From a virus (taxonomy: Duplodnaviria; Heunggongvirae; Uroviricota; Caudoviricetes), in IMG/VR virus record IMGVR_UViG_3300005323_000036: DNA of 35,305 nucleotides. One strand, given 5' to 3'. The notes below the pieces were generated by a model, which was not told where the DNA came from, did not search any database, and worked only from the letters and a program-made list of their open reading frames with translations. Of the stretch, positions 18,574 through 23,645 are shown one piece after another. Position numbers and translations under genes: made by a program. Numbering within the stretch: position 1 is the first letter of the stretch; each line of letters starts with the position of its first letter.

Positions 18574-18981
18574 ATGAATTCTGAACATTTGTTTTTATAT
18601 AGTGACGGAGGATATCGGCAATCTATCAATAAAGGCGCGTGGGCATTTATTATTATGAACGATAGTGGTGAGGTTGTGAAAAGTGGGTCAGGTGAAATGG
18701 TTGACTCGTCAAATAATATCTGTGAATATAGTGGACTATTGAATGGATTAAAGGCTGTGATTAATTTAACGAATAATATAACGTGTATTTCTGACAGCCA
18801 ACTTATGATTAATCAGATGAACGGTTCATATAGAGTTAAAAATGGAAAACTAAAGGTGTGTAAACGGCGTGCTGATATTTTGTGTAGTTGCTTTGAAAAA
18901 ATTGAATTTATTTGGATGCCTAGAGAAACACCATCCATAAAAGCATGTGACAAAATGTGCGATGATATTTTAGGATATTAG
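18574..18981 (+). CDS. rnhA: Ribonuclease HI
   Basis: All four acidic catalytic positions present: YSDGG, NNICEY, ISDSQL, WMPRE..ACD. Confidence 0.9.
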   Translation: MNSEHLFLYSDGGYRQSINKGAWAFIIMNDSGEVVKSGSGEMVDSSNNICEYSGLLNGLKAVINLTNNITCISDSQLMINQMNGSYRVKNGKLKVCKRRADILCSCFEKIEFIWMPRETPSIKACDKMCDDILGY

Positions 18982-19032: not shown

Positions 19033-19308
19033 ATGGTATTGGGTAGATTGTTGGATATTATAAGGTTTATACGTGAACCAAAAGAAGACATAGATTATAT
19101 TAGGGTTTCATTTGGTAAATATAAACAATTACAAGGGATTCCCGCCAGAGAAGGCCATAATAGACTTGATATTGAAATAGAAAAAGATGATGAAATGTTT
19201 TCAGATTGTTTGGAACTTTGCAAATTAATAGAATCTAAATATAAACAAAAATCTAAAAATGATAGATATAAAAGATATTTAGAACTTAAATCTGAATTTG
19301 AGGAATGA
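19033..19308 (+). CDS. Hypothetical protein
   Basis: Track ORF, 91 aa. Confidence 0.6.
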   Translation: MVLGRLLDIIRFIREPKEDIDYIRVSFGKYKQLQGIPAREGHNRLDIEIEKDDEMFSDCLELCKLIESKYKQKSKNDRYKRYLELKSEFEE

Positions 19309-19377: not shown

Positions 19378-19989
19378 TTAACTGCGTTTGGTGAAGTGAG
19401 TGAGGTGGAGTTTGCGTTCTGCTTTTTTGACATCATTTAGGGTTATTGATTTGCGGTTGCCTTTTGTTTCGCTGCACGTTACGAGTATTTTTTCAATGAT
19501 GGAGAGGATGAGGTTTTCTATTTCTGGATAGGCATGGAACGAGAAATATAGGTCGGGCTGTTGGTATAGGGCACGTGCATATATCATGAATCGATTCTTA
19601 AGTATGATGGGCTTTTTAAATGGTCGTTTTGGCCCATATATTCCTCTGGATTTGCGTCGCTCTAGAAAATTGTTGATTGAGTCTTTGTGTTGTGGATAGG
19701 AATATTCTGCGTGGTATTTGTCAACAAGTTCGGCCGCGTGTTTGGCTACTGTTTTTGGTGACGGTGGTAATGGTAATGAAGGTGGTTCCCTGGATTTAGC
19801 ATATTCTTCTATCTCCTTGAGTAGTTCTTGTTCCCATGCATCATCCGAAGGTTGAGGATTGGTGAATAGTAGTGGGTCTACCTGATCAATAAATGATGTT
19901 GGTTTAGGCAGATCTGGATCACGTGGTTTACGCGGTACAAGTTTTCGCTTTTTTGAACGCTTACGTGCTTTCGGATTAGATTTATACAT
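19378..19989 (-). CDS. Histone-fold protein (H3-like core) with long basic/proline-rich N-terminal extension
   Basis: Residues about 127-195: IILKNRFMIYARALYQQPDLYFSFHA...NRKSITLNDVKKAER, with the RK[ST]IxxxD L2/alpha3 signature (R179/D186). Confidence 0.65.
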   Translation of the reverse strand: MYKSNPKARKRSKKRKLVPRKPRDPDLPKPTSFIDQVDPLLFTNPQPSDDAWEQELLKEIEEYAKSREPPSLPLPPSPKTVAKHAAELVDKYHAEYSYPQHKDSINNFLERRKSRGIYGPKRPFKKPIILKNRFMIYARALYQQPDLYFSFHAYPEIENLILSIIEKILVTCSETKGNRKSITLNDVKKAERKLHLTHFTKRS

Positions 19990-20011: not shown

Positions 20012-20317
20012 TTATTTATTTTCTGAATTATATAGATTTGGTTTGGAGTTACTGATATATTCATTATATTCGGAAGTTGTTATTGGTATGCCTGTTGTTG
20101 CCGCACTACCACAATTAGATGATATTTCTTTAATTGATACTATATGTTTTTGATTTTCGATGAATCTCATTACTAGATTCATTAGTTCTACTGAATGGTA
20201 ATTGTAAGTTTGTATATCTGATATATCAAAGAACATAAAGTCAATTTTTGATGCAATTTCATCTTTTATGTTGCGGGAGATTTGGAATACTTCATCTTGT
20301 GTTTTCATATTAATCAC
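20012..20317 (-). CDS. Hypothetical protein
   Basis: Track ORF in the same late operon as the histone-fold gene. Confidence 0.55.
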   Translation of the reverse strand: MINMKTQDEVFQISRNIKDEIASKIDFMFFDISDIQTYNYHSVELMNLVMRFIENQKHIVSIKEISSNCGSAATTGIPITTSEYNEYISNSKPNLYNSENK

Positions 20318-20371: not shown

Positions 20372-20740
20372 TTAGTCTTCATAGGCGCGTTTGGGTTGTT
20401 TGGGGATTTTGAAGCGTGGTAAACCGAGGTCATAGTTTTCAAGGTTGTGGCGGCAATTTTTCTTGTTGTAACCATTGTAGGCAAATTTTTTACCTTGTTT
20501 ACATTCTTCACAGCAATAGATTTCTTTTGGATCAGTTGTTTTGAAGTAACAGTTGCAATTGGGACATAAGTGGTAGTAACGGGCATCCCATCGGTGAGAT
20601 TGAGCGCAATCACCACAATACATTCCACGATATCGACCTACAGATGGATCGTCGGGATTGATGTTGTTAGGTGTTATTTCAGTCTTATGATATTCAAGCC
20701 ATTTACCACAACCAAGGCATTTTCGGTGAACGAGAACCAT
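20372..20740 (-). CDS. Multi-Cys zinc-binding protein
   Basis: CLGC, CGDC, CPNC and YCCEEC motifs; leaderless start 24 nt from a late TATA box. Confidence 0.7.
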   Translation of the reverse strand: MVLVHRKCLGCGKWLEYHKTEITPNNINPDDPSVGRYRGMYCGDCAQSHRWDARYYHLCPNCNCYFKTTDPKEIYCCEECKQGKKFAYNGYNKKNCRHNLENYDLGLPRFKIPKQPKRAYED

Positions 20741-20756: not shown

Positions 20757-20772
20757 TTTACAGTATATAAAT
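20757..20772 (-). promoter_or_regulatory. Late promoter driving the zinc-finger/histone operon
   Basis: Perfect ATTTATATACTGTAAA. Confidence 0.8.
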
Positions 20773-22589: not shown

Positions 22590-23645
22590 ATGAAAAGGAA
22601 TTGTTTGGCGAAGAGTGATATAATACTAACTATACGGAATGATATAATGAGGGTTGTTAAGGTTCCTACGGGAAAGATTGCTATTATTGATGGGAGATAT
22701 GGAAAATTGGAATGTTTGAGTCTTGGTGATTATGGACAGGATAAAAATATAAAGGCCGATTTTTTTGGATTAGATAGAGAAATTAGTGGTGTTGATAATT
22801 GTAATGAAGTTATGCCACTTGAGAAGAAATGGGTCATTACACTATCTACACAATATGGATGTAGCATGGGATGTAAGTTTTGTGACGTTCCTAAAGTTGG
22901 ACCAGGAAGAAATGCATCAGTTGCAGATTTAAATAGGCAGTTGTTTGTGGGATTGTTATTGGGTAATGGGGTTGAGTATACTGAAAGGTTGAATGTGCAC
23001 TATGCCAGGATGGGAGAGCCTACATTTAACTTTGATAATGTTATGACGCATGCTATTGAGATGAAATATAATATTGAAACAATTGTTGGCATAAGAGCAA
23101 AAACTATTCATCCCGTGCTGTCAACGATGATGCCGTGGAGAAATAAAAAGTTGGAAAGTAATATTCATGATTGGGCATATGTAAAGAACTCGGTATATAG
23201 AGGAGAAGCAGGATTACAACTGTCCATTAATACTACCAATGAGAAAGAAAGGAAAGTGATGTTTGGTGGTAATGCCATTAAACTAAATGATATTGGGAAA
23301 TTGATGGATGGGGTAGATGATCCTGTTGGAAGGAAATACACATTGAATTTTGCAGCATACAAGGGAACAGAAATTGATGCTGATGCATTGGTAGATTTGT
23401 TTCCGGTTGACAAGTTCATGTGCAAGATTACACCAATACATGTAACAAATAGAGCAGTTGATAATGGTTATATAGATAGTGAGAGAGATTACTTTGACAC
23501 ACTGGAAGGAGAGTTGAAAAATGCGGGGTATGATGTGCTGTTGTTTTACCCATCAGATAATGAAGATTTAGGAATGATAACATGTGGTAATGCAATATTG
23601 TCGGGAAGATTACCGGAAGTAGGGTATGAAGAAGTGGTAGTGTAG
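22590..23645 (+). CDS. RlmN/Cfr-like radical SAM protein
   Basis: LSTQYGCSMGCKFC (CxxxCxxC), RMGEPTFN, LQLSIN and C-terminal ITCGN parallel RlmN VSSQVGC, MGMGEP, LAISL and AACGQ. Alternative start at 22647. Confidence 0.8.
   Translation: MKRNCLAKSDIILTIRNDIMRVVKVPTGKIAIIDGRYGKLECLSLGDYGQDKNIKADFFGLDREISGVDNCNEVMPLEKKWVITLSTQYGCSMGCKFCDVPKVGPGRNASVADLNRQLFVGLLLGNGVEYTERLNVHYARMGEPTFNFDNVMTHAIEMKYNIETIVGIRAKTIHPVLSTMMPWRNKKLESNIHDWAYVKNSVYRGEAGLQLSINTTNEKERKVMFGGNAIKLNDIGKLMDGVDDPVGRKYTLNFAAYKGTEIDADALVDLFPVDKFMCKITPIHVTNRAVDNGYIDSERDYFDTLEGELKNAGYDVLLFYPSDNEDLGMITCGNAILSGRLPEVGYEEVVV

Follow-up and report, generated by a model that had tools for sequence, protein, structure and literature searches.

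We found that a 203-codon gene (positions 19378–19989, minus strand) in a 35,305-nucleotide stretch of tailed-virus DNA, from the IMG/VR virus record IMGVR_UViG_3300005323_000036, codes for a protein (here P0001) whose C-terminal ~75 residues are, on the strength of structure prediction, very probably folded as a histone fold and paired into a symmetric handshake homodimer. The analyzed stretch, hereafter the window, corresponds to bases 15339–50643 of the complete 127,255-bp virus record, which has 30% G+C and terminal repeats of 122 bp and encodes tail-tube, tape-measure and terminase proteins. Leaderless transcription in archaea proceeds from a TATA box placed 23–27 nucleotides (nt) before the start codon; because the virus displays this promoter geometry and also carries a gene for a PCNA clamp, a family whose Pfam model matched only the archaeal ones among our control genomes, we read it as a tailed virus of archaea. 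The open reading frame (ORF) of P0001 is intact and yields the 203 amino acids (aa), with the exact C-terminal string, quoted in a preliminary description of the window, which took the product for a virus-encoded histone with an H3-like core and a long basic tail, under late control. We favor, with moderate confidence, an overall reading in which P0001 is a histone-fold homodimer with a DNA-architectural role.

The secondary structure predicted for P0001 comprises α1 (~128–142), the loop L1 (~143–152), α2 (~153–176), the loop L2 (~177–183, with R179-K180-S181-I182) and α3 (~184–193, with D186), and predicted structure and profile alignment together delimit a histone-fold core at aa 127–194 (19408..19611, minus strand). 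AlphaFold2 (AF2), supplied with the 8-row family alignment, placed helices at 29–43, 54–77 and 85–94 in model numbering (P0001 numbering being obtained by adding 99), i.e., helix lengths of 15, 24 and 10 residues with intervening loops of 10 and 7, and with predicted local distance difference test (pLDDT) values of ~80 across α2–α3, the last 50 residues. The histone fold put forward in the preliminary description is therefore what structure prediction returned: a helix–loop–long helix–loop–helix arrangement in the α1-L1-α2-L2-α3 topology. When the AF2 model was searched with Foldseek against the PDB, the top 50 matches were nearly all histone folds, at E values of at least 0.23; names of histones, NF-Y and TAFs predominate among the matching fold clusters of the AlphaFold Database (AFDB). 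In the Swiss-Prot section of AFDB, histone folds account for 30 of the 30 top matches, with the best compact fit to HMf-2 (probability 0.93, template modeling (TM) score by hit 0.67, root-mean-square deviation (rmsd) 3.6 Å over 64 aa) and a comparable one to A. fulgidus A1-1 (probability 0.91, rmsd 3.6 Å). The best VIA match of the P0001 model is an M. kandleri histone, and in the viral library BFVD the giant-virus histones rank first. In the ESM Atlas, which has its own ESMFold model of P0001, all 10 of the rows matched by this model are histone-fold clusters (TM by query 0.65–0.75, over residues 120–202). The language-model neighbors there, with scores of 0.86–0.90 that are lead-grade only, are clusters of PF00808, TAF and CENP-S type, several being of tailed-virus origin. 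The prediction that residues ~127–194 adopt a histone fold is thus consistent across libraries, with no single strong score among them.

Histone folds are obligate handshake dimers, and the prediction of a homodimer was for this reason chosen as a test of the fold. Dimer modeling of two copies of the C-terminal domain, as proposed in the preliminary description, gave values of 0.80, 0.80 and 0.81 for the interaction prediction score from aligned errors (ipSAE), as against 0.00 for the best of three controls. Of 30 proteins solved as same-chain pairs, 20 attain the same mark, as does 1 of the 23 that were solved as single chains. At least 84% of the contacts are common to the runs, with a partner pLDDT of at least 75. 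In model numbering, α2 crosses α2′ at 62/65/66, L1 (48–51) meets L2′ (81–84), α1 (38–42) packs on α2′ (66–71) and α3 (85–92) on α2′ (54–61). The short, conserved C-terminal tail of the H-L-T-H-F-T-K type (aa 195–203; 19381..19407, minus strand) is predicted to be a small helix contributing to the dimer interface (model residues 96–97 and 100–102). The contacts predicted here match the histone handshake, with its antiparallel α2 crossing and L1–L2′ bridge. As many histone dimers have been solved, the result may stem from the memory of the model, and it speaks for likeness to histone dimers rather than for proven dimerization.

The register of the fold was also approached by profile alignment. 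Archaeal genomes were found by a 16S probe site and scanned with PF00808, which provided 32 histones, 16 of which were aligned. The comparison of the viral family with these 16 by hhalign gave a P of 0.041 (0.024 for the trimmed core) and a score of 15.4. Column shuffling of the template, repeated 200 times, gave 9.8 ± 1.9, with 15.4 attained in three cases, and the reversed template scored 8.8. In this alignment F149-S150 corresponds to the V-S that closes L1 in the archaeal histones, A153 and A190 to invariant alanines, R179-K180-S181-I182 to the archaeal R-K-T-V and D186 to the invariant aspartate; an extended alignment, of low confidence, further pairs P127-I128...R133 with the archaeal α1 P-I...R. 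The likeness of R-K-S-I...D to the archaeal RKT[VI]...D, first drawn by eye, was accordingly reproduced against the 16 histones, and the contact predicted between F149 and I182′ in the dimer is consistent with the same register. At the profile level the match between the viral family and the archaeal histones is weak but non-random, and it falls in the structurally expected register.

P0001 belongs to a small and divergent family. A word-indexed protein search with P0001 recovered only itself, and neither the single protein nor the family profiles had a meaningful match in Pfam, PHROGs or the PDB sequences. An exhaustive HMMER search of 1.84 billion representative proteins retrieved two genuine homologs, at E values of 7e-5 and 4e-4; another match of this search (P0002) was discarded as a repeat protein that aligns with the low-complexity N-terminal region only. 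Profile searches and scans of viral and metagenome contigs bring the family to eight sequences, 28–38% identical to P0001, whose sources are a related 136-kb virus and otherwise short metagenome contigs; the GenBank phage records gave no match at either the DNA or the protein level, and a collection of species-representative prokaryote genomes gave no cellular homolog. Conservation is strongest in the last ~80 residues, where the invariant columns are, in P0001 numbering, P127, I128, I129, R133, Y137, F149, A153, Y154, E156, E158, L162, E166, K167, I168, R179, I182, D186, E191, K193 and L194. Given these homologs with a conserved C-terminal core, the ORF is a genuine gene on which selection acts. 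Each of the two viruses whose genomes are complete or nearly so has exactly one copy of the family and zero canonical histones. We take P0001 to be the founding member of a small sequence-orphan family of very probable histone-fold proteins, encountered here only in related large tailed viruses of archaea. One member deserves a separate comment: on a 1.2-kb ENA contig (OGVN01010250.1), the 3′ half of a family gene is joined to a 301-aa ORF (31–936, minus strand) resembling a cellular metabolic enzyme, and since this ORF opens with ~25 residues that equal the viral gene read in antisense, the contig probably results from chimeric assembly.

N-terminal to the core, P0001 has a region of 126 residues (aa 1–126; 19612..19989, minus strand; net charge +11) in which no known domain was recognized and for which model confidence is low. 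Its composition is as previously described, with 12 Lys/Arg among residues 1–23 followed by acidic and Pro-rich stretches. The notion of a long basic tail holds in so far as the region is basic across the family (148–182 residues in the homologs; net charge +8 to +11), but the dense Lys/Arg start is peculiar to the virus studied here (13 Lys/Arg among the first 30 residues, versus 5–6 in the homologs), and the N-terminal regions of the homologs carry conserved motifs, e.g., an I-K-L-T-P-E-L-G-P-R-P start and an N-P-L-L-T. On account of these motifs we regard the region as an extension rather than a plain tail, a term that is only partly apt.

The gene for P0001 (19989–19378, minus strand) is the last of a three-gene operon behind a perfect promoter copy, as the preliminary description had it. 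The first gene (20372..20740, minus strand) encodes a Cys-rich protein of 122 aa, which has four CxxC-type pairs (two predicted zinc ribbons) and no Pfam or PDB match; the second (20012..20308, minus strand) is a ~98-aa ORF absent from the related virus, separated from the P0001 gene by a 22-nt gap. Upstream of the operon, a perfect TTTATATACTGTAAA 15-mer (20757..20771, minus strand) sets its TATA octamer (20771–20764) 23 nt before the first ATG at 20740, a distance that implies a leaderless mRNA. The genome holds 29 copies of TTTATATACTGTAAA within two mismatches, with a distance from TATA octamer to ATG of mostly 23–27 nt where an ORF follows. Those in the window are at 3147, 6038, 7557, 10434, 12231, 13090, 15591, 18257, 18508 and 20771, among which the copies at 7557, 10434 and 15591 are perfect and precede genes of the structural/packaging arm. 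The copies cluster in the structural arm, where a CTG-type extension is enriched, and one perfect copy is located in the other genome arm (genome position 79140). Because the promoter is that of the morphogenesis genes, P0001 is probably expressed late, which we hold to be reasonable; the late control claimed earlier is partly supported by a promoter common to the structural genes, the link being one of motif sharing, and a perfect copy is also present in the other arm.

Homologs of the zinc-ribbon protein (36% identity, E 1e-20) are encoded directly upstream of the histone-fold gene in the related virus L002 (7125–7397) and in the contig L004 (1516–1788). In L002 a TTTATATA box is situated 22 nt before the ATG of the zinc-ribbon gene, and the spacer between the two genes is 70 nt long and lacks a TATA box. 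A promoter specific to P0001 was considered and judged unlikely, as the CTTATATAA upstream of its gene ends 12 nt before the ATG, as opposed to the usual 23–27 nt, and a TATA box is lacking at this place in the relative. A scan for sigma-70 promoters gave no more matches than in shuffled sequence. The ~98-aa ORF was likewise rejected as a partner histone, being unconserved in the relatives and having no histone signal, and the Pfam histone models detected no second histone-type partner in the six frames of the virus genome, in line with the preliminary description.

A 2026 survey (Nat Commun, PMC13260811) names four universal signatures of histones: the L2 motif RKT[VIL]; the R-D clamp, in which an Asp follows the L2 Arg at a distance of exactly 7 residues; the RV motif of L1, with an Arg that serves as the minor-groove "sprocket"; and the RT pair. 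Nucleosomal histones, according to the survey, in addition tetramerize by a four-helix bundle. Set beside these, several observations weigh against reading P0001 as a DNA-binding histone-fold protein. The models PF00808 and PF00125, to which the preliminary description had looked for confirmation of the core, match nothing at E ≤ 10 in P0001, its C-terminal domain, all eight family members or the whole genome in six frames, and the family profile retrieves zero histones from all PDB sequences. The family alignment is shallow, at eight rows, and the monomer models are of modest confidence (pLDDT 48.6 and 62.8, the latter being the AF2 mean, with values below 50 in L1). The L2 motif, R179-K180-S181-I182 in P0001, reads R-T-[RK]-[RQ]-I in the other seven members, i.e., RKT is degenerate. 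The R-x6-D pattern pointed out earlier is right for P0001, where R179 and D186 are 7 apart, but the Arg stands 8 before the Asp in seven of the eight members, both columns being invariant. The RV position is occupied by [YF]-F throughout the family (Y148-F149 in P0001), such that the sprocket Arg is absent and a hydrophobic residue, which is predicted to contact I182′, is kept; the homologs have an Arg or Lys two residues before the sprocket position. The His at the end of α2 that is invariant in the 16 archaeal histones aligns with N178 and with variable residues in the other members. With the sprocket Arg and the tetramer His missing, the R-D spacing at 8 and RKT degenerate, canonical wrapping of DNA is disfavored and the case for DNA binding is weakened. 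P0001 is accordingly placed in the histone-fold class, outside the HMf-type nucleosomal family. The core of the viral family has a net charge of +2 to +9 and an isoelectric point (pI) of 8.8–10; the 32 archaeal histones have a mean charge of +0.4.

Computation establishes the existence of the gene, its family and synteny, the copy of the promoter, the class of fold and a predicted dimer. DNA binding and timing are inferred, and any role in condensing or packaging the viral DNA, or in poisoning host chromatin as suggested in the preliminary description, would be speculative. We envisage a symmetric histone-fold homodimer with two long basic extensions, which would contact DNA by means of the retained basic residues of L2 and α1, main-chain L1L2 contacts and the extensions themselves. 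Such a protein would act as a non-wrapping architectural factor, co-produced with the zinc-ribbon protein while the virion genes are on, from a bi- or tricistronic leaderless mRNA that would carry P0001 together with this conserved neighbor. That P0001 is a dimeric, non-nucleosomal, architectural DNA-binding protein is an interpretation that we prefer by a slight degree. A bolder proposal, which we think rather doubtful, is that P0001 is a tailed homodimeric viral histone that has kept the dimer and L2 surfaces and lost the sprocket and tetramer contacts, and that together with its zinc-ribbon partner it builds a late non-nucleosomal chromatin on the 127-kb genome, or else caps or disrupts the histone polymers of the host.

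The foremost alternative to an architectural role holds that the histone fold is a protein–protein dimerization module only and that P0001 is a regulator or adaptor, acting through its N-terminal motifs or a complex with the zinc-ribbon protein, rather than a DNA coat. The missing sprocket Arg, RT pair and tetramer His are what would be expected of such a protein, as are the conserved motifs, and not mere charge, in the N-terminal regions of the homologs, the conserved pairing with the zinc-ribbon gene, and the TAF, CENP-S/T and NF-Y clusters, which are as frequent as the nucleosomal histones among the language-model and fold neighbors. It accounts less readily for the strongly basic core and extension (pI 8.8–10) and for the retention of the L2 R-K-S-I and the α1 Arg, which are DNA-contact positions in histones, and on balance we deem it unlikely, though well deserving of consideration.

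That the C-terminal domain is a generic three-helix domain and not a histone fold at all, the predictors having been misled by the RKSI...D motif and the helix lengths, is very unlikely. The low hhalign probability (about 2%) and the shallow family alignment would fit this explanation, and histones are abundant in the training sets of the predictors, making memory effects possible; nevertheless, AF2, the ESMFold model of the Atlas and ESMFold2 (the complex) agree with five libraries, non-redundant ones included, on one fold, the contact map and the independent profile register concur on the residues of L1 and L2, and the hhalign score was reached by only 3 of the 200 column-shuffled controls.

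An H3-type, eukaryote-like tailed histone, with a bearing on the origin of tailed H3, is the least tenable reading and can be set aside as exceedingly improbable: H3 chains do lead the Foldseek PDB list (E 0.23) and a helix precedes α1 where H3 has αN, but this helix is unconserved in the homologs, the PDB H3 rows align poorly (TM 0.33–0.35, rmsd 10–12 Å, probability 0.2–0.35) and are surpassed in local fit by archaeal histones, H4 and H2B, and P0001 is predicted to form a homodimer and is without an H4-type partner. The H3-like core of the preliminary description is likewise contradicted by the Swiss-Prot AFDB, where the H3 rows have probabilities of 0.23–0.30 and rmsd of 9–12 Å, as against 0.93 and 3.6 Å for HMf-2, and by the family itself, in which the H3-matching residues R139, Q143, D146 and L147 vary. 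With R139 and Q143 unconserved, the by-eye alignment to H3 is at chance level. Among the residues on which that description had staked its case, R179, D186 and F149 proved invariant, but D146 and L147 of the "DLxF" loop did not. The suggestion that P0001 could help to explain how tailed H3 histones arose finds no support, and P0001 says nothing on this question.

P0001, as a predicted histone-fold homodimer, is best understood by comparison with three sets of known proteins. With the HMf-type archaeal histones (HMfA/HMfB, A. fulgidus A1-1 and M. kandleri; PF00808) it shares a three-helix fold of the same size, the predicted handshake homodimer, an L2 R-K-[ST]-[IV] followed at 7 residues by an Asp, the packing of a hydrophobic residue of L1 against L2, and the α1 P-I...R. 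Unlike them, it has no match at the level of hidden Markov models (HMMs), has Tyr/Phe in place of the L1 sprocket Arg, and lacks the tetramer-interface His; the α1/L1 segment of its family is about six residues longer and its members are much more basic, with an N-terminal extension of 126–182 residues and a 9-residue C-terminal tail, where the HMf histones are tailless and ~68 aa long. TAFs, NF-YB/C, NC2, CHRAC and CENP-S/X resemble P0001 in their comparable fold-search scores, in the use of the fold as a dimerization unit and in an incomplete nucleosomal signature, but these eukaryotic proteins are mostly obligate heterodimers, whereas P0001 has one gene per genome and is predicted to be a homodimer.

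The third set is the most closely related in setting. Liu et al. 2025 (hLife, PMC13681535) surveyed Caudoviricetes histone-fold proteins (HFPs) from IMG/VR with HMM profiles and describe HMf-like viral HFPs as well as face-to-face HFPs with Lys-rich N-terminal tails of 5–40 aa (PMC13681535). As far as that account describes them, these proteins are similarly encoded by tailed viruses of IMG/VR, some having basic N-terminal tails and some belonging to viruses predicted to infect Methanobacteriota; judged by the same descriptions, the P0001 family is set apart in matching no histone HMM and in having an extension 3–4 times longer, with conserved motifs. The conserved zinc-ribbon pairing is a feature of the P0001 family that their description of the HFPs does not include. 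P0001 is hence a divergent variant of a kind of protein already known from viruses, the histone-fold proteins, and what is new with respect to the known viral histones is a family invisible to HMMs, with a long conserved extension, loss of the sprocket Arg and a fixed pairing with a zinc-ribbon protein. Viral histones serve in reasoning about the evolution of chromatin and the management of large viral genomes, and surveys of them depend on histone HMMs; the P0001 family suggests that histone folds unseen by such HMMs occur in archaeal tailed viruses. It also offers a small, expressible test case for the part that a histone dimer may play without a sprocket Arg or a tetramer contact, and for the question of whether archaeal viruses make DNA-architectural proteins of their own alongside the virion genes.

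We also noted several features elsewhere in the window. The P0001 gene is convergent with a plus-strand gene (19033–19308), and near it is an RNase H gene (RVT_3/RNase_H; 18574–18981, plus strand), which is conserved in this neighborhood in the related contig L007 (3580–4020, minus strand). At the edge of the window, an open-ended ORF (1–1926, minus strand) has an HD phosphohydrolase domain (Pfam E 1.4e-8) at its N-terminus and matches to tape-measure PHROGs further along, and two adjacent paralogous tail-tube genes of the Phage_tube_2 family occupy 3511–4341 and 4415–5518 (both minus strand). A 351-aa protein (22590–23645, plus strand) matches phrog_24834 (E 1.6e-111) and, weakly and below the cut-off, the Pfam family Radical_SAM. 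Finally, the palindromic 10-mer ATAGATCTAT is the commonest 10-mer of the genome, counted 30 times on the two strands together; it might have a regulatory role or be related to restriction.
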